From: Spirulina sp.
GTDB taxonomy: Bacteria > Cyanobacteriota > Cyanobacteriia > Phormidesmidales > Phormidesmidaceae
Direction: 5' to 3'
Length of the DNA stretch: 64,000 nt
Assembly: GCA_044070495.1 (NCBI GenBank)
Contig: JBIPSI010000004.1
Span: 64,001 to 128,000, forward strand
Shown: piece after piece, positions 50,019 through 58,111 of the stretch
How the letters are laid out: each line of letters starts with the position of its first letter
Numbering within the stretch: the stretch's first letter is position 1
Program-made: the position numbers and the translations under genes
Notes under the pieces: generated by a model
Database searches by the model: none
What the model saw: only the letters and a program-made list of their open reading frames with translations
Told to the model about the DNA's origin: nothing

Positions 50019-50399
50019 ATGGATATGACTTCCGTATCCCACAACCCAACAGCTATTATTCGTACCGAACGAGGATTGTCAATTTCTGGGACACGCATCA
50101 CCCTATACGATGTGATGGACTACCTGATAGCCCAATATCCACCACAGTTTATTCGTTCCCTGTTCGACTTAACAGAGGATCAGATGACTGCGGCTTTAGC
50201 CTACATTGAGGCAAATCGCGCTGAAGTTGATGCAGAATATCAATCCGTTCTGACCCAAGCGGAGGAAAGCCGACGCTATTGGGAAGATCGAAGTCGTGAG
50301 CACCTAGCCCGTGCTGCCAACATACATCCTAATCCGGATCAAGCCGCGCTTTGGGCGAAACTTCAGGCTCAAAAAGCTAGGCATGGGATTGATGCATGA
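50019..50399 (+). CDS. DUF433 family antitoxin
   Basis: IIRTERGLSISGTRITLYDVMDYL...AALAYIE. Confidence 0.85.
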   Translation: MDMTSVSHNPTAIIRTERGLSISGTRITLYDVMDYLIAQYPPQFIRSLFDLTEDQMTAALAYIEANRAEVDAEYQSVLTQAEESRRYWEDRSREHLARAANIHPNPDQAALWAKLQAQKARHGIDA

Positions 50400-50791
50400 A
50401 CTTTTTGATTGATCACAACTTGGGAGGACATGCTGAGTTGCTATTGGGTAATATTGCGAGTCAAGGTTGGCTAGAACTAATTCCAATTCGCTTTGTTACT
50501 TTTCAAGAAATTGGTTTGCCGATTGATAGTAGCGATCAAAGAGTCTGGCAATTCGCCCAGTTAAATCAGATGATTTTGCTAACGGCAAACCGAAGCATGA
50601 AAGGAGAAGATTCGCTGGAGAAAGTGCTTCGGGAAGAAAATACTCTGAATTCCTTTCCTGTCGTTACCATTGGAGATGCCAATCGTTTTTTGGCCGACCG
50701 CGTCTACCGAAACCGTTGCGCTGACCGTATCCTCGAAATCCTGTTAGAGATTGAAAACTGGATGGGTGTTGGTCGTCTTTTTGTTCCGTAA
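50396..50791 (+). CDS. DUF5615/PIN-like (VapC45-type) putative toxin
   Basis: MNFLIDHNL, DSSDQRVWQFAQ, ILLTAN. Overlaps the DUF433 stop (ATGA coupling). Confidence 0.75.
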   Translation: MNFLIDHNLGGHAELLLGNIASQGWLELIPIRFVTFQEIGLPIDSSDQRVWQFAQLNQMILLTANRSMKGEDSLEKVLREENTLNSFPVVTIGDANRFLADRVYRNRCADRILEILLEIENWMGVGRLFVP

Positions 50792-50807: not shown

Positions 50808-51665
50808 ATGCCATCCTCCTTCCTCACCCTTCAGAGCCAACACGCCTGCTTTGGCGGCACCGTGGGCTACTACAGCCACTTTTCTAGCCAGTGCCAGTGC
50901 GAAATGCGGTTTGCGGTCTTCATTCCGCCCCAGGCCCAGGCTGGCCCGGTACCCGTGTTGTATTACCTATCGGGGCTAACCTGCACCGAGGAAAACTTTA
51001 CCGCCAAGGCCGGAGCCCAGCGCTATGCGGCGGAGCAAGGGCTGATGCTGGTGGCCCCCGATACCAGCCCCCGTGGGGAGGAAATCCCCGACGAAGCCGA
51101 TGCCTGGGACTTTGGCACCGGGGCCGGGTTCTACGTCAACGCAACCCAAGCCCCCTGGAGCCAGCACTACCGCATGTATAGCTACGTGGTGGAGGAACTG
51201 CCGGAACTGATCGCCGCCAACTTTGCCATAAAACCGGATCGCCAGGGGATTTTTGGCCATTCCATGGGCGGGCACGGAGCCTTAGTCTGTGGTCTGCGGA
51301 ATCCCCAGTTGTTTAAGTCGATTTCGGCCTTTGCCCCCATCGCCGCCCCCAGCCAATGCCCCTGGGGGCAAAAAGCTTTTAGCGGATACCTCGGCCCCGA
51401 TCAAACCCTGTGGCATGGCTACGATGCCAGCCACCTAGTGAAAACCCAACCCCAGCCCGACCGGATGATCCTGATTGACCAGGGCAACGCCGATCCTTTT
51501 TTGGGCCAGGGCCAACTCTTGCCGGAGGTGTTTGAAGCGACCTGCAAGGAAGCAGGACAACCCCTAACCCTGCGAATGCAACCGGGCTACGACCACGGCT
51601 ACTACTTCATTGCCACCTTCATGGCCGACCATATTCGCCACCACGGGGCCATCCTTACGACCTAG
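50808..51665 (+). CDS. frmB: S-formylglutathione hydrolase
   Basis: [18 protein letters not shown] nucleophile, GYDHGYYFI. Confidence 0.95.
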
Positions 51666-51803
51666 GACATTGCGCCCCTGCTTGCCCGCCCCATCCCCAA
51701 TCCTGCCCCATCGATGCTGGAAGTTAGGTGCAGCGATAGTCGCTACGGTGCCGTGGTAGCGGCATGAGGCGCGGGCCATGACCGATTTGGCGGTGCCGCG
51801 TCG

Positions 51804-52260
51804 TTCATGGACGATCCCCAGCATCAGGATGTTGAAATGAACCGAGCCAAACGACCCATTCGTGCGGTCGAGACTCAATGTCCAGGGTTGAGGTATCTGG
51901 CTCCAACTCACCATCGTCCGGGCAATATCATCAAAATCCACCGGAAACTCCCGCAAAAACCGGGTCAGACGCTTGTGGCTCGACTCTGGTTTTGCCCGAT
52001 TGGCAAACACCGACGACAGCTTATCCAGGTTCACCGTCTCCACCCGGAATAGGGCCACCAGAAACAGGGCTAGAAACGTCAGACGGGCACCATGCCACGG
52101 CAGATGAGGGCGCAGGGCCGCTTGAAGTCGGTTAATCTGAGTCATGGAGAGGGTCTAGCTAAGGTTGTGCTAATCTCTAGCTCACCTCCCTCTTCCTCAG
52201 TCTGTCAACCCCTCCACAGGGAAGGCTTTCAGCCCCTCACCCCAAGTTTTGTCCCTGTAC
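51804..52260 (-). pseudogene. Truncated IS4-family transposase (N-terminal 114 aa, ATG at 52145) with its left end
   Basis: WHGARLTFL, VNL.KL, SSHKRL.RF, LSLDRTN(G for the usual W).FG..NILMLG; homology stops at about 51804. IS-end-like TTTTGTCCCTGTAC at 52247-52260. Confidence 0.75.
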
Positions 52261-52379
52261 CGTGGCCCACACCTGGGGTGCCCCCTGAACTGCCGCTTCT
52301 TTAGCAACACACCGTGAGTCATGTAGATGAGCGTAATCATTTGTAGGGTTTGTCAGCTTGATCTCGTCACAATCAGGTA

Positions 52380-52408
52380 TTGACATCTAGATTTTTGTAC
52401 ACTAACTT
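52380..52408 (+). promoter_or_regulatory. Sigma70-type promoter for the NYN-RNase III unit
   Basis: TTGACA (52380-52385) - 17 nt - TAACTT (52403-52408). Confidence 0.65.
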
Positions 52409-52455
52409 TATACCAAGCTCTACATTAAAGCGCTAGCGCTTCTGGCCAGCTAGGT

Positions 52456-52659
52456 TTACAAAGCTGCCGCTTCCAAAATTTGCAGGTAAAGCTGTACAGG
52501 GTGGATGCGACAACTTTGTAAGGTTAGCTGAATCGAAAAATAACTAAAAATTCTGTAGTTAAGTCTACGGAAATTTTAGCTATTCTTCAGTTCAGCCACA
52601 TCATCAGCCGCAAGAAACGCTACAGAAGACGTAGAGCCCGTACTTTATTGGAGGCTCTA
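52456..52659 (+). ncRNA. Highly structured leader / candidate regulatory RNA upstream of the NYN gene
   Basis: IR 52456-52475/52502-52521 (17/20), IR 52527-52558/52565-52596 (26/32), and TAGAGCC/GGCTCTA stem overlapping the GGAGG SD. Confidence 0.5.
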
Positions 52660-52661
52660 AC

Positions 52662-53138
52662 ATGAGTGCTCAAGTTGTTTCAATTCACCGCAATTGTCCT
52701 ACGGTAGCGGTAGCTGTTGATGGCCAAAATGTTGGCCTTTTGAAAAATGGTGAGGCTATTTTGAGGTTTGCATCAGGTTTGGGTAATGTTTCTATTCAAT
52801 GGGCTTACTACAATTATCGAAACCTGAAGCCTCGCCATGAAGCCCGACTACAGGAGCAGGAGTGGCAATGTGTAGATGTGGCAGTTTGTACGAAAAACGA
52901 ACTGGATCATCGAATGATGACGGCGGTGAGAAAGTTGTGTTCCTGTCAACCACCTAATATTTTGGTGATCGTCACCAATGACAAAGACTTTGCTCCCCTC
53001 ATTGAGTATGCCTGTAGTCAGGGAATCAAGGTCTTTGTCATTGGTCGGCGTAATGGGATGAGCAAGGATCTCAAGCGTCTTCTCCCCAATGGCATCGTTT
53101 ATATTGAAGACCTGAAACAACTGCCTTTAGCGAGTTAA
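52662..53138 (+). CDS. Stand-alone NYN (LabA/DUF88, PIN-fold) ribonuclease
   Basis: VDGQNV, KNELD, IVTNDKDFAPLI, G.KVFVIG; acidic catalytic motifs intact; GGAGG SD. Confidence 0.85.
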   Translation: MSAQVVSIHRNCPTVAVAVDGQNVGLLKNGEAILRFASGLGNVSIQWAYYNYRNLKPRHEARLQEQEWQCVDVAVCTKNELDHRMMTAVRKLCSCQPPNILVIVTNDKDFAPLIEYACSQGIKVFVIGRRNGMSKDLKRLLPNGIVYIEDLKQLPLAS

Positions 53139-53157
53139 CGCGACTTTAGAATGGTCT

Positions 53158-53208
53158 GACTTTGCCCTTGAGAGCTTCTACAAAATAGACTTCATCAAGG
53201 GTAAAGTC
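53158..53208 (+). other. Long hairpin between the NYN and RNase III genes
   Basis: GACTTTGCCCTTGA / TCAAGGGTAAAGTC (14 bp, one G-U) with inner TCTA/TAGA stem. Confidence 0.6.
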
Positions 53209-53235
53209 TTTCCAAAGCCCTGTTTAGTATTGATC

Positions 53236-54099
53236 ATGAGAATTCCTGACTTCAAAAATAAAGAACTGCTTCAACAAGCACTGACTCATAGCTCCTATGC
53301 TAGGGAAAATGTCACGACTGACAACGAGCGTCTAGAATTTCTCGGTGACAGTATTATTGAGTTTGTAGTACGTTTTTTGCTTTTTACCCAATATCCAAAG
53401 ATGGATGAGGGCGAAATGTCGAAACGCTCTGATTTAATCGTCGATCAATCTCAATTAGCCGACCTTTCAGTAAAGCTAGGTTTGCCAAATCGTCTGCGAT
53501 TGGGAAGTGGCTCCCAGCAGGAACGTGATAACCCTAGCGTCCAGGCTGACGCCTTTGAAGCCCTGATTGGAGCCTATTTTTTAGATTCTGGCATTAATGC
53601 TGCTTACGATTATGCCAAATCCTTATTTAGCCCATTAATTGCTCAATCTATCAATCTCACGCCTACCGATCCAGTCAGTGCTTTTCAAGAGTATGTACAA
53701 GCTCACTTTGCTGGTCAGCTTCCCGACTATCGAGAGCTTAGCGCTATTGGTCCAGATCATGCCAAAACCTTTGAGATTGCGGTTTATATCAATCATGAGC
53801 GTTACGGTACAGGCAAGGGCAATAGTAAGAAAGAAGCACGAAAGCAAGCGGCCTTGGATGCACTCAATCACCTTCAACCCGATCCCGTAAGCAAATTACA
53901 GGAGTTGGTACTGACTCGTTTTGGCGAACCACCCGAATATCGAGAACTCAGTACGGTAGGTTCCGTACCTAATCAAACATTTGAAATTGGGGTGTATATC
54001 AACCACCAATGCTACGGTGTTGGTAAAGGAAAACGTAAAAGGGAAGCCCGCAAGCAAGCCGCATTAGAAGCAATCAGTCGATTAAAGGCTAAAAAGTAG
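53236..54099 (+). CDS. rnc: Ribonuclease III with two tandem dsRNA-binding domains
   Basis: ALTHSSY, NERLEFLGDS, ADAFEALIGA, then two dsRBDs (DPVS..QE...G.G..K.EARKQAA each). Confidence 0.9.
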   Translation: MRIPDFKNKELLQQALTHSSYARENVTTDNERLEFLGDSIIEFVVRFLLFTQYPKMDEGEMSKRSDLIVDQSQLADLSVKLGLPNRLRLGSGSQQERDNPSVQADAFEALIGAYFLDSGINAAYDYAKSLFSPLIAQSINLTPTDPVSAFQEYVQAHFAGQLPDYRELSAIGPDHAKTFEIAVYINHERYGTGKGNSKKEARKQAALDALNHLQPDPVSKLQELVLTRFGEPPEYRELSTVGSVPNQTFEIGVYINHQCYGVGKGKRKREARKQAALEAISRLKAKK

Positions 54100-54176
54100 A
54101 CTAGCGGCTAGATGGCCTAGCGTTCCACTGCTAAGCTGCCTACACTAAAAGAGCCGTATTCAATAGAACTCACTCT

Positions 54177-55544
54177 ATGACCACCTTTAGCGCACCATTG
54201 CACATCAACTGGGATACCTTCGCCAGTGCCCTGGGTGAGATTGAGGTGGTGCGCGAGCCGGGGCAGGTTGAGAAGCTCTCCAAGGACTACTACCACTTCA
54301 GCCCGGTGCTTCAGGGGCAGTTGGCAGACTATAGGGCGGATTTGGTTGTGCGTCCCAAAACGGAGGCCGAGGTGCTGCAAGTGGCCCAGCGCTGTGTGGC
54401 GGAACGGGTGCCGCTGACGGTGCGAGGTGCGGGGACGGGCAACTACGGCCAGTGCATCCCCTTGGCGGGGGGTGTGGTGCTGGATTTGAGCCTGATGAAT
54501 CAGGTGAAGTGGATGAGGCCGGGGGTGGCGTGCGTGGAACCGGGGGCTAAAATGGCTGCCATTGACCGAATTACAAGGGAAACGGGCTGGGAACTGCGGA
54601 TGGCTCCTTCTACCTACCGGACGGCCACCATTGGCGGCTTTATTGGCGGCGGCAGCGGCGGCATGGGGTCAATTACCTACGGCCAACTGCGGGATCGGGG
54701 CAACCTGAATGCCGTGCGGGTGGTGACGATGGAGGATCAGCCTCGCGTCCTTGAACTACGGGGCGATGCGGTGCAGCAGGTGAACCACGCCTACGGCACC
54801 AACGGCATCATCACCGAGTTGGAGGTGCCCCTGGGGCCAGCCTACCCCTGGGCCGAGACCATTGTGGTGTTTGACGACTTCATGACGGCGGCTCGATTTG
54901 GCCAGGTGCTTGGCGAAGCGGACGGGCTGATTAAAAAGCTGATCACCGTGTTTGCATGGCCTGTGCCGAACTACTTTATGGCGCTCAAATCCTATCTGCC
55001 GGAGGGCAAGGCGGCGGTGTTTGGGATGGTAGCCGAGCCGTCCCTAGAACTATTTGGCGAACTGGTGCGGGAATTTGGCGGTGCCGTAACCTACCAAAAA
55101 TCCGCCCAGGAGGCCAGTAAGGGTACCTTGTTGGTGGAGTTTACCTGGAACCACACCACCCTTCATGCCCGCAGTGTGGATCCAACCATCACCTATCTGC
55201 AAACGCTGTTTCCCTACGATGCCGACCTCAAAGGTGTCGAGCATTTCTACCGCCACTTTGGCGATGAGGTGCTGATGCACCTGGAATTTCTACGCATCGG
55301 GGGGCGGGTTTGTCCCGCAGCGCTGCAACTGGTGCGCTACACCACCGAGGAACGGCTGAACGAGATCATCCGCTACCACGAAGACCGTGGGGCCTTCATC
55401 GCCAACCCCCATACCTATCTGCTCGAAGATGGCGGCATGAAGCAGGTGGATCACGCCCAGGTAGACTTTAAGGCCCAGGTGGATCCCTACGGATTACTCA
55501 ACCCCGGCAAAATGCGCGGCTGGCTAGAACGGCAAACACCGTAG
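54177..55544 (+). CDS. FAD-binding oxidoreductase (FAD_binding_4, GlcD-like)
   Basis: RGAGTGNYG, ATIGGFIGGGSGG, YGTNGIITE, DPYGLLNPGK. Confidence 0.88.
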   Translation: MTTFSAPLHINWDTFASALGEIEVVREPGQVEKLSKDYYHFSPVLQGQLADYRADLVVRPKTEAEVLQVAQRCVAERVPLTVRGAGTGNYGQCIPLAGGVVLDLSLMNQVKWMRPGVACVEPGAKMAAIDRITRETGWELRMAPSTYRTATIGGFIGGGSGGMGSITYGQLRDRGNLNAVRVVTMEDQPRVLELRGDAVQQVNHAYGTNGIITELEVPLGPAYPWAETIVVFDDFMTAARFGQVLGEADGLIKKLITVFAWPVPNYFMALKSYLPEGKAAVFGMVAEPSLELFGELVREFGGAVTYQKSAQEASKGTLLVEFTWNHTTLHARSVDPTITYLQTLFPYDADLKGVEHFYRHFGDEVLMHLEFLRIGGRVCPAALQLVRYTTEERLNEIIRYHEDRGAFIANPHTYLLEDGGMKQVDHAQVDFKAQVDPYGLLNPGKMRGWLERQTP

Positions 55545-56583: not shown

Positions 56584-56767
56584 GGTGCTTGGTAGAAAAT
56601 AGGTCTATGGGTGGCTCTGCCTAGGATATACCGCGCCCCTAGCGGATTTCCAGGACAGCAGCTTCCTATGGCTTTGCTAAACCATAGCCTCCAGCCACAA
56701 AAAATGCAGAACTGATGAGCCATTCTGGGTAGTCTAGAGCGAGGTGATGCTTGCAGGCTCAACGGCG

Positions 56768-58111
56768 ATGGCAAATCAAGAACAGGTCGCTTTGCTAAAG
56801 CAGGGAATTAAGGTTTGGAATGCCTGGAGGGATGGAAATCCTGACGTTGAGATAGATCTTAGATTCGCCGACCTAACCGCCGTCGGCCTAATCGCCGCCA
56901 AACTCAGCTACGCCGACCTCAGCTACGCCGACCTCAGCTACGCCAAACTCAGCTACGCTAACCTCAGCGAGGCCGACCTCAGCTACGCCGACCTCAGCTA
57001 CGCCGACCTCAGCTACGCTAACCTCAGTGAGGCCGACCTCAGCTACGCCAAACTCAGATCCGCCAACCTCAGCGAGGCCAACCTCAGCGAGGCCAACCTC
57101 AGCAAGGCCAACCTCAGCGAGGCCGACCTCAGCGAGGCCAACCTCAGCGAGGCCGACCTCAGCTACGCCGACCTCAATGCGTCTCAGGTACTTGGTGCTA
57201 ATTTTACCCAGGCAACACTCACAGGAGCCTGTATAGCCGACTGGCAAATCGGCATCTCAACCATCCTTAAAGATGTCCAATGTGACTATATTTTTCGCAC
57301 CTACAACTATGAGAGTCAACAATTCTCAGGTCGTCTTCCTATGGATCCTGAAAACCCCTTTGCCCTAGATGAATTTAGTCAACGATTTCAAATTATTGCC
57401 AGTGCCCTAGAAACTATCGACATCACCTTCACCGAGGGTATCGACTGGCAAGCCTTTTTCCAGTCTTTCCAGGAATTACGGCAGCGTTATCCCCAACATA
57501 ATATTGGCATTCAAGGCATTGAGGAGAAGGATGGAGCCTTGATAGTGCGCTTGAAAGTAGAAACAGAAGAGACAGGCGCAGCGCTAGAGGAGCTTAAAGG
57601 CCGGATCGAAACCACCGAGAAGCAGTTATATTCAGTTCAACTCTCATTGCGGGAAGCAGAAGGGCAACTGAAGGTGTACCGAGAGATGATGGGAGTAGTT
57701 CAGACGTTAGTGTTAAGACCTATGGGTGACCAAAATTTCTATGCTCCAGTTGGCAATGTGGCGGGTACCAACCAAGGGCAAATGACAGCCTACATCAACC
57801 AAAATAATGAGGCTATCAGCCAACTCATCGCCACACTTCGGTCTACTGTTCAGGCTTTTCCATCCGAGCAAAAAGACGATGTGTTGATGGAGCTAGACGA
57901 CCTAGAAAGCGACCTCAGCAAGACAGAGAAGCCAGAACCAAAGCGCATCGGTAAGCGACTTCAAAGAATCTTGGCCGCAGGAACTGCCGCTGCCACCCTA
58001 GCAGGAGGTGCCGCTACCTTTACAGGCGATCTCAACGAATTCACCCAAAACGTGCTGGAGTTGGGAGAAAAAATTGGTCTAGATCGAGGTTCGATCCAAG
58101 GCAACCCATAA
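56768..58111 (+). CDS. Pentapeptide repeat protein
   Basis: WNAWR N-terminus, A(D/N)LS(Y/E) repeats, LTGACIADW, helical C-domain. Confidence 0.9.
   Translation: MANQEQVALLKQGIKVWNAWRDGNPDVEIDLRFADLTAVGLIAAKLSYADLSYADLSYAKLSYANLSEADLSYADLSYADLSYANLSEADLSYAKLRSANLSEANLSEANLSKANLSEADLSEANLSEADLSYADLNASQVLGANFTQATLTGACIADWQIGISTILKDVQCDYIFRTYNYESQQFSGRLPMDPENPFALDEFSQRFQIIASALETIDITFTEGIDWQAFFQSFQELRQRYPQHNIGIQGIEEKDGALIVRLKVETEETGAALEELKGRIETTEKQLYSVQLSLREAEGQLKVYREMMGVVQTLVLRPMGDQNFYAPVGNVAGTNQGQMTAYINQNNEAISQLIATLRSTVQAFPSEQKDDVLMELDDLESDLSKTEKPEPKRIGKRLQRILAAGTAAATLAGGAATFTGDLNEFTQNVLELGEKIGLDRGSIQGNP
56896..57177 (+). repeat. 15-bp near-perfect tandem DNA repeat encoding the pentapeptides
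   Basis: GCC(G/A)ACCTCAGC(TAC/GAG) units, about 19 copies. Confidence 0.85.

Follow-up and report, generated by a model that had tools for sequence, protein, structure and literature searches.

The 64,000-nucleotide stretch of Spirulina sp. DNA analysed here (contig JBIPSI010000004.1, positions 64,001 to 128,000 of the forward strand; hereafter the window) holds, within its positions 52380-54099, two plus-strand genes that encode a predicted ribonuclease (RNase) of the NYN family and an RNase III (rnc), the whole unit being AT-rich. The NYN gene is preceded by a long structured leader RNA, and the pair suggests an undescribed module in which one nuclease leashes the other. As to how this leash might operate, we give an even chance to the proposal that the leader stems are cut by RNase III, with the result that NYN is synthesised only when RNase III activity is low. 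The stretch from the promoter through leader and NYN gene to the hairpin 3′ of it is a self-contained unit, which also occurs alone. An earlier reading of the window from its letters alone (the sequence-only reading) had described an AT-rich two-gene unit with leader, NYN gene, hairpin and RNase III gene, and each of these elements was found, while its interpretation is upheld in part. That the arrangement goes beyond chance is shown by recurrence in other genomes with covarying base pairs.

The leader of about 250 nt was predicted to fold at –80.4 kcal/mol (z = –4.05), a value that none of 200 shuffled sequences attained. RNAalifold analysis of six aligned leaders (genomes and loci are cited below by our G and L numbers) yielded three predicted elements, namely helix P0, in which segment A pairs with the distant segment B, and the stems P1 and P2. 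In P0 (consensus columns 39-47 with 287-295) 94% of the alignment cells can pair and 3 of the 9 pairs have changed on both sides, while for P0 and P1 taken together these figures are 93% and 12 of 31, which none of 500 shuffles equalled and which compares with 23-42% pairing in slid controls. The basal helix of P1 (20 pairs, with the conserved sequence ACTAG..TACAnAGC / GCTnTGTA..CTAG) could be followed over 11 loci, including loci in which NYN stands alone; there, 91% of cells were paired and 11 pairs had changed on both sides, as against 0-1 of 500 shuffles reaching the observed value and 19-40% pairing in slid controls. The slid controls and the repeated double changes argue for a real leader structure. 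Segment B has an alternative partner in segment C, which abuts the start codon of NYN and overlaps its Shine-Dalgarno (SD) sequence: this B-C hairpin is present in the minimum free energy (MFE) fold, 92% of cells pair, and 2 of its 8 pairs have changed on both sides. SD-sequestering hairpins were also seen in the stand-alone NYN loci, and the motif AGGCTCT is invariant in all six aligned leaders.

An nhmmer profile built from the leader matched NYN loci only, with none of 27 NYN-less rnc loci giving a hit, and stem P1 was kept in all 11 alignable NYN loci, stand-alone copies included. The leader of L079 could not be aligned, and carries a hairpin of its own, of about 45 bp, at the place of P1. 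In the window's own genome the leader is single-copy. Because the leader is found only with NYN, also where NYN stands alone, and because its pairs show compensatory changes, we regard it as the control element of NYN. The earlier suggestion of functional hairpins around NYN thus stands as far as conservation with compensatory changes is concerned, with the amendment that the leader tracks NYN and not rnc. Transcription is predicted to start from a promoter with a perfect –35 hexamer; the motif TTGAC(A/G)-17/18-TAnnnT recurs in 5 of the 6 loci aligned, and the remaining row begins downstream of it. The promoter had been called near-consensus, which holds for the –35 element and the conserved motif, but its –10 element matches at only 3 of 6 positions and it was therefore not called by a consensus scan.

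Several other identities were considered for the leader and set aside. A general rnc leader was rejected, as the nhmmer profile found nothing in NYN-less rnc loci and most of their upstream regions are unstructured (z near 0). A leader peptide was rejected since the plus strand of the leader has no open reading frame (ORF) of 20 aa or more, and a type III toxin–antitoxin (TA) system of the ToxIN kind since the leader lacks direct repeats and 52300-54200 contains no tandem ones. Comparison with Rfam assigned the leader to no family and returned only sub-threshold matches resembling miRNA precursors, which reflect the long hairpins. The apical part of P2 (52551-52572) was flagged as terminator-like; its T-run is not conserved in relatives.

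Table 1. Features of the NYN-rnc unit and of its immediate surroundings, in window positions (dsRNA, double-stranded RNA; dsRBD, dsRNA-binding domain; IS, insertion sequence).
Feature	Position	Strand	Remarks
Promoter	52380..52408	+	–35 TTGACA 52380-52385, 17-nt spacer, –10 TAACTT 52403-52408
Leader segment A, GCTCTACAT	52417..52425	+	near predicted 5′ end; pairs with segment B (helix P0)
Leader stem P1	52447..52531	+	long imperfect dsRNA hairpin, candidate RNase III site
Leader stem P2	52531..52596	+	second long AU-rich hairpin; in MFE and centroid folds, RNAalifold columns 194-243
Leader segment B, ACGTAGAGCC	52629..52638	+	anti-SD; alternative partners A (P0) or C (SD/start region)
SD and segment C, GGCTCTAA	52650..52661	+	SD GGAGG 52650-52654, segment C 52653-52660; directly before NYN ATG
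NYN-domain predicted RNase (LabA-type, minimal)	52662..53138	+	158 aa, Pfam PF01936
Hairpin inside NYN ORF	52974..53045	+	26-nt arms, 88% complementary
Hairpin between the genes	53158..53208	+	51 nt, directly after NYN stop
RNase III (rnc)	53236..54099	+	287 aa; alternative start TTG 53230
RNase III domains			catalytic, then dsRBD1 53665-53880, dsRBD2 53881-54096
IS4 transposase remnant	51564-52145	–	193-aa ORF
DUF433/DUF5615 pair	50019-50791		stop and start codons overlap

Since stems of 25-45 bp are the classical substrate of RNase III and the E. coli enzyme cuts its own leader, we infer that P1 and P2 are targets of RNase III. In the proposed mechanism, the uncut transcript would have A paired with B, leaving the SD and start codon of NYN free. 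Cleavage by RNase III in P1, P2 or both would sever A from B, upon which the released B would fold onto the SD as the B-C hairpin, while the downstream RNA would carry a 5′ monophosphate; NYN translation would be switched off and the mRNA would decay. The output of NYN would in this way be inversely coupled to cellular RNase III activity, and if rnc lies on the same transcript, the same cut would impose classical negative feedback on rnc. NYN would then be a leashed RNase, made when RNase III activity falls, and might act either as a toxin or as a back-up or partner nuclease.

Linkage of the two genes was examined in all 173 genomes of the family, with NYN scored as present at E ≤ 1e-20. NYN occurred in 13 of these genomes and in 4 of the 19 genera, and rnc lay directly downstream on the same strand in nine (G000, G126, G118, G121, G027, G032, G113, G119 and G064). 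After exclusion of G098, in which the contig end precludes a verdict, this amounts to 9 of 12 readable genomes, so that the expectation that the pair co-occurs elsewhere proved right; one further linked pair was found on a metagenome contig. The linked pairs reside in at least two chromosomal contexts, one between ABC-2 permease and FAD oxidase genes (window, G126, G027, G121) and the other being the ancestral epimerase locus (G032, G113, G119), and they involve two rnc subtypes. RNase III is absent beside the more remote NYN genes of about 30% identity, and the 36 other genomes of the same genus hold a close NYN relative (at least 47% identity) in 2 cases and an rnc ortholog in 30. The backbone of the NYN tree, from which we had asked whether rnc linkage was ancestral, was unresolved (left out were L078, with NYN cut by a contig end, L067, and L070-L072, which are the same records as L028-L030). 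No relatives of NYN were present among IMG/VR viral contigs or phage records, and the plasmid collection gave nothing beyond 27%-identical Vibrio genes, on which grounds a viral or plasmid origin was rejected. The open-access literature yielded no description of the NYN-RNase III cassette or of its leader.

These data also bear on the simplest alternative, that adjacency and hairpins are a product of chance or hitch-hiking without joint function. The sequences are related, and some of the conservation is bound to be inherited rather than selected. The compensatory changes in 11-12 helix pairs, however, and the persistence of the adjacency both across contexts and between loci with dS above 1, at which synonymous positions have reached saturation, make this explanation highly improbable.

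Autoregulation by NYN itself, in which NYN would recognise and cut its own leader and the adjacency of rnc would merely reflect a preferred insertion or recombination site, is a rather more serious contender, though still one to which we assign little probability. Stem-loops in their own mRNAs are targets of Regnase-1-type PIN/NYN RNases; the leader occurs strictly with NYN, also where no rnc is adjacent; and 7 of the 20 base pairs of the P1 basal helix never vary over the 11 loci, which fits a sequence-specific protein site. Adjacency in 9 of 12 readable genomes, in at least two contexts and with two rnc subtypes is hard to explain without function, however, and the length of the stems is that of a classical RNase III substrate. 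MARF1, the structurally closest characterised NYN protein, is moreover reported to cut single-stranded RNA.

A number of observations weigh against RNase III acting on the leader to silence NYN. The opposite polarity, in which cleavage activates NYN, is equally compatible with the structures, the balance between A-B and B-C pairing in vivo and the direction of the cleavage effect both being inferred. The B-C pairing shows weak covariation, its observed value being reached by 22 of 500 shuffles, and all covariation figures come from 6-11 related sequences for which the shuffle control overstates independence. NYN itself, or some other protein, could be what acts at the conserved base of P1, and the hairpin 3′ of NYN could act as a terminator, making co-transcription of rnc with the leader putative. 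Linkage is not obligatory either, as NYN is found without adjacent rnc in three genomes (G093, G107 and G128), and G064, a cassette-bearing genome from another genus, may be a binning artefact, being a metagenome-assembled genome of about 590 contigs with about 5% contamination.

The NYN protein matched Pfam PF01936 over residues 15-139 with 52.8 bits (cut-off 24.2, E 8.1e-14), and its AlphaFold2 model (pLDDT 84.6) shows the PIN-like alpha/beta fold without helical insert, together with conserved acidic residues, that marks the family. The best Protein Data Bank matches in Foldseek were the LabA-like protein 2qip (VPA0982; TM 0.76) and the NYN domain of MARF1 (5yaa/6fdl; TM 0.72-0.78), which share fold and Pfam family with the window protein at a sequence identity of only 14-19%; unlike this comparison set, it carries no extra domains (no OST-HTH/LOTUS, no RRM). 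The prediction of an NYN RNase with intact acidic motifs was thereby upheld, D20, D72, D107 and D109 being invariant in 10 sequences. A 2017 survey of the PIN superfamily gives the family four conserved acidic residues (PMC5499597), and on that basis particular residues here would be catalytic. According to this survey, nuclease function had been studied in none of the PF01936 NYN proteins (PMC5499597). Selection on NYN is purifying (dN/dS 0.09-0.25), and the clade is narrow, with only 8 related clusters in a word-based search. Assignment to NYN_YacP/Rae1 (PF05991) was rejected, because the protein matches only PF01936 and, below threshold, PIN7; the motif that follows D20 is DGQN, versus the 'GYN' motif after the first Asp of YacP.

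The RNase III matched TIGR02191 with 246.3 bits (cut-off 166.25) and Ribonucleas_3_3 with E 1.5e-31, in addition to two dsrm domains, and has the catalytic domain (ERLEFLGD signature, DAFEA acidic motif) plus at least one dsRBD expected of a bacterial RNase III. Its catalytic motifs are intact, as had been read from the sequence: E34, D38 and E108 are invariant and D105 nearly so among 25 sequences. The ATG start is likelier than the TTG, because the orthologs begin M-x-L/I-P-x-F, and dN/dS values of 0.03-0.13 indicate purifying selection. With 287 aa and two tandem dsRBDs that share 59% identity, the enzyme departs from canonical class 1 RNase III (single C-terminal dsRBD, about 220-230 aa). 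The double dsRBD emphasised by the sequence-only reading is real, but belongs to only part of the NYN-linked genes, namely those of 4 of the 9 NYN-linked family genomes, the enzymes of G027, G032, G113, G119 and G064 having a single one. The doubling is a lineage-specific duplication confined to a narrow clade; in a search of 5.8 billion proteins, only 6 clusters spanned both dsRBDs. No description of a bacterial RNase III with tandem dsRBDs was found in the open-access literature. As a separate observation, RNase III proteins with two or three dsrm domains occur elsewhere in a library of 1.84 billion proteins (P0040, P0052 and P0041, of 295, 360 and 409 aa).

The window's own genome encodes three RNase III-type genes, being the window copy, a full-length paralog 29% identical to it, and a Mini-III-like gene, so that the window gene is the sole copy of its paralog. 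Orthologs 56-70% identical to it are carried by 30 of the 36 other genomes of the genus, and in 21 of the 29 rnc loci fetched from other genomes rnc lies directly upstream of, or overlaps, an NAD-epimerase gene; these epimerase-type copies have a normal GC content of 0.52-0.65. In the RNase III tree, from which L035 and L040 were excluded as duplicates of L010 and L031, the window enzyme nests within this core orthologous group and forms a well-supported clade with the three other double-dsRBD genes, joined next by G027, G005, G019 and G010; the outgroup was the 29%-identical paralog on a very long branch, which leaves the root unsure. Where the NYN-linked copy is present (G000, G027, G032) there is no second copy of the paralog, and in G000 the epimerase gene stands without rnc. 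The window RNase III is an AT-rich allele of the core paralog and not a separate enzyme type. It is not the dedicated enzyme first proposed; the caveat attached to that proposal, that the gene might be the housekeeping rnc, partly applies, given that a core paralog is present as sole copy. Synechococcus sp. PCC 7002 exemplifies cyanobacteria with two full-length RNase III enzymes and a Mini-III (PMC5829567). The window's own genome matches this, with two full-length genes and one Mini-III-like gene, and the window lineage differs from the usual cyanobacterial set in that an NYN cassette carries one of the paralogs, which is AT-rich and, at 287 aa, has its dsRBD duplicated.

The status of this RNase III as the sole core-paralog copy in its genome, and the purifying selection on both genes, would agree with an ordinary RNA-processing partnership, in which NYN and RNase III act jointly or sequentially on the same cellular RNAs, such as rRNA and tRNA precursors or mRNA decay intermediates, the operon serving co-expression and the leader setting the expression level and RNase III autoregulation. 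A precedent exists in Firmicutes, where the operon gltX-cysE-cysS-mrnC(Mini-III)-yacO-yacP(NYN_YacP) is given as conserved in almost 300 genomes, and the same account links bacterial NYN genes to tRNA and rRNA processing by neighbourhood (PMC5499597). That operon (yacP encoding Rae1) shares with the cassette the union of RNase III-family and NYN-superfamily genes. Nevertheless, the window NYN belongs to PF01936 of LabA type and has no PF05991 match, the RNase III is full-length with one or two dsRBDs instead of a Mini-III, the gene order is reversed, a conserved structured leader is found on the cassette, and the cassette is sporadic, AT-rich and mobile rather than a core operon; the resemblance goes no further than the combination of NYN with the RNase III family. 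The difference in numbers between close NYN relatives and rnc orthologs in the genus (2 versus 30 of 36) further indicates that NYN is unneeded for the core role of the enzyme, and both the retention of the leader with stand-alone NYN and the AT-richness and cassette replacement point to an accessory element. We therefore consider a plain partnership unlikely as an account of the whole locus. As to the role of NYN alone, toxin or guard on the one hand and partner or back-up RNase on the other fit about equally well.

Mobility of the cassette is apparent from its composition and from several genomes. NYN genes have a GC content of 0.38-0.50 and linked rnc genes of 0.44-0.51, versus 0.52-0.65 in unlinked orthologs; because linked copies have diverged to saturation at synonymous sites (dS above 1), this low GC must have been maintained and does not mark a recent import. 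In Nodosilinea sp. FACHB-131 (L031) the resident rnc persists over about its first 68 codons, in which a catalytic D has become N (motif EFLGNG), as the start of a 115-aa ORF (L031:4226-4573; same place L011:729-1076). This remnant and its own leader are 93% identical in DNA to a relative, and are followed by a 1.1-kb insert with leader and NYN, a complete rnc whose subtype differs and is closest to G002/G011, and the resident-type epimerase gene, which we read as replacement of the resident rnc by the cassette through recombination. In G064 the cassette rnc is 65% identical to that of the window (L081, G064:C350) and coexists with a resident paralog at 43% (L086, G064:C144), a level typical of other genera; this two-copy state would fit inter-genus transfer. 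The gene flanking the G064 cassette is patchily distributed as well; its best match (74%) comes from another genus, as against 47-64% within the genus of the window, and it does not decide between transfer and a binning artefact. In G005 and G019, sister to G027 in the tree, rnc is present and NYN and leader are absent. Stand-alone NYN units adjoin a ParB_N-like gene in G093 (L077:1180-1950) and an LPD29-domain gene in G128 (L079:2800-3460, on a 107-kb contig of a 3-contig genome), another such unit being found at L075 (G107); the ParB_N and LPD29 neighbours suggest carriage on plasmids or mobile elements. Overall, the cassette is horizontally mobile in Nodosilinea-type cyanobacteria and usually carries its own rnc allele, which can replace the resident gene.

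The sequence-only reading had proposed a TA or abortive-infection module. Made specific, this would be a type V-like system in which NYN is a growth-arresting RNase toxin and RNase III the antidote that silences or destroys NYN mRNA via the leader, until the enzyme is titrated away by phage dsRNA or by an inhibitor and NYN is freed. The sporadic distribution (13 of 173 genomes), the horizontal transfer of NYN with its own rnc, the stand-alone units in mobile-element-like contexts, and the GC content at third codon positions (GC3; 0.43 for NYN and 0.38 for rnc), which resembles the 0.42 of the neighbouring DUF433/DUF5615 pair, would all be in keeping with it. So would the very tight translational control implied by a strong promoter, SD sequestration and 5′-end fold-back, the same combination by which hok-type type I toxin mRNAs are tightly silenced. 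G005 and G019 have lost NYN and leader and kept rnc, and no decayed rnc was seen beside an intact NYN among the 12 readable family genomes and G005 and G019. In B. subtilis, moreover, RNase III silences foreign toxin mRNAs (PMC5371410). On the opposing side, the toxin role of NYN is putative; PADLOC shows no system, only a partial match to an NYN domain (E 1.3e-5); the window neighbourhood is housekeeping; phage records and viral contigs hold no relatives; three genomes have NYN without linked rnc; and RNase III, as the sole core-paralog copy in most hosts, must also do ordinary work. We consequently hold this reading to be possible but doubtful.

In its most specific version, this reading would make the cassette an 'RNase III-leashed' mobile module and a new TA or abortive-infection type with a cassette-borne allele of the cell's RNase III as antidote, a step that we likewise rate as improbable at present. 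The antidote would cut a riboswitch-like leader in which a three-way switch of 5′ end, anti-SD and SD is flanked by two dsRNA stems, and NYN would be freed upon loss or inhibition of RNase III or its titration by foreign dsRNA. A normally dispensable rnc would thereby become addictive, and the cassette could replace resident alleles, as in FACHB-131.

The nearest precedents for cleavage of a harmful message are type V and certain type I systems. In the type V pair GhoT/GhoS the mRNA of a harmful gene is cut by an endoribonuclease and the gene thereby neutralised, and the concept is shared by the B. subtilis pairs txpA/RatA and yonT/SR6. RNase III is essential in B. subtilis through the silencing of prophage toxin mRNAs (PMC5371410, PMC3531473). 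The cassette differs in that its putative toxin is a 158-aa soluble RNase and not a small membrane peptide, in that no antisense RNA is known for it, and in that the putative neutralising enzyme is a general RNase III carried in cis.

Returning to the proposal that RNase III acts on the leader to control NYN, its closest parallel is the rncO leader of the E. coli rnc-era-recO operon. The E. coli enzyme cleaves a structure in its own 5′ untranslated region and thereby destabilises its mRNA (PMC5371410). There as here, a structured 5′ leader has long dsRNA stems; the transcript includes rnc in E. coli and probably also in the cassette. In the cassette, by contrast, a nuclease gene lies between leader and rnc, and the leader is tied to NYN, persists without adjacent rnc and includes an SD switch made of three segments. 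Neither sequence nor Rfam comparison links the two, and cleavage of the cassette leader is putative. The unit would operate as an autoregulatory leader of rncO type joined to a translational switch.

If the leader is indeed a translational switch operated by RNase III, the locus would be a compact, covariation-supported nuclease gene that reports the activity of another nuclease, a design of which we found no description for NYN proteins in the open-access literature. The cassette could also explain why cyanobacteria tolerate, exchange and duplicate RNase III alleles, and, should NYN prove toxic, would represent a TA or defence logic in which a general housekeeping-type enzyme is the cis-linked antidote. 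Apart from this, the leader is a well-defined new RNA element, and a natural bacterial tandem-dsRBD RNase III becomes available for enzymology. The locus is small (1.7 kb), and a version of it is in the public record of a named strain, Nodosilinea sp. FACHB-131.

In four genomes of the same genus that lack NYN (L055, L056, L057 and L062), an imperfect hairpin of about 35 bp lies directly before or over the start of the resident rnc. These hairpins (z = –3.4 to –6.1; e.g., L056:1395-1500, G007) are unrelated in sequence to the NYN leader, and each is a candidate independent RNase III autoregulatory leader. They lend independent support to the existence of RNase III-type leaders in the genus. 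Upstream of them lie a DnaJ-domain gene and a 337-aa gene without Pfam match, as in FACHB-131.

The hairpin between the genes lies in an intergenic stretch of 111 nt that folds at –32.3 kcal/mol (z = –3.1). This hairpin is kept in L028, L029 and L067, and also in L030, where GAC/GTC has become GAA/TTC, and a hairpin of different sequence lies 3′ of NYN in L031, L073-L077 and L079, stand-alone loci included; among the loci examined, only L010 lacks one. In L030, a double-dsRBD relative, the NYN-rnc spacer measures 234 nt (L030:5478-5711) versus the usual 90 or so; its 240-nt stop-to-start stretch folds at –80.8 kcal/mol with an extra large structure, and looks like an insertion after the conserved hairpin. 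Inspection of the spacer by eye for a promoter of rnc itself gave only weak, unconserved motifs (TAGTAT in the window). The hairpin inside the NYN ORF arises from reverse complementarity between the TNDKDF and the KVFVIG codons. It was rejected as part of the conserved design, as the 90-nt segment 52968-53057 folds at –42.1 kcal/mol in the window versus –14.8 to –26.4 in six relatives, so that the hairpin is strong in the window only and weakly conserved.

In base composition the unit stands out from its surroundings, with a GC content of 0.42-0.46 over 52500-54000 against 0.56-0.62 in the flanks, and with GC3 values far from the 0.71-0.76 of four neighbouring genes. The IS remnant and TA pair reported beside it are both real, as an IS4 transposase remnant and the DUF433/DUF5615 pair. 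Likeness to IS4 is limited to about the first 117 of the 193 residues (model positions 1-83 of 340), the remainder of that ORF extending into the 3′ end of the esterase gene; the remnant marks a rearrangement, because an ABC-2 permease gene holds that side of the cassette in the relatives G027 and G121. The DUF433/DUF5615 pair is AT-rich like the NYN-rnc unit and gave no match in the PADLOC comparison. The wider neighbourhood encodes FtsY, an acyl-CoA synthetase, a class III alcohol dehydrogenase with its esterase, the FAD oxidase, TspO, HflX and alanine dehydrogenase. A defence island was therefore rejected for the window, the PADLOC matches of neighbouring genes being merely generic radical-SAM and GTPase hits. 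In PADLOC-DB v2.0.0, no catalogued system matched: RNase III had no match at all, and NYN only a partial one (PDLC01154) over residues 95-152. That no named system had been recognised in the locus thus agrees with both this comparison and the open-access literature.

Elsewhere in the window, positions 56744-58111 (plus strand) encode a 455-aa pentapeptide-repeat protein with long ADLSY/ANLSE decapeptide-like repeats and a coiled C-terminal half; the long ORF antisense to this gene derives from the repeats and is an artefact.

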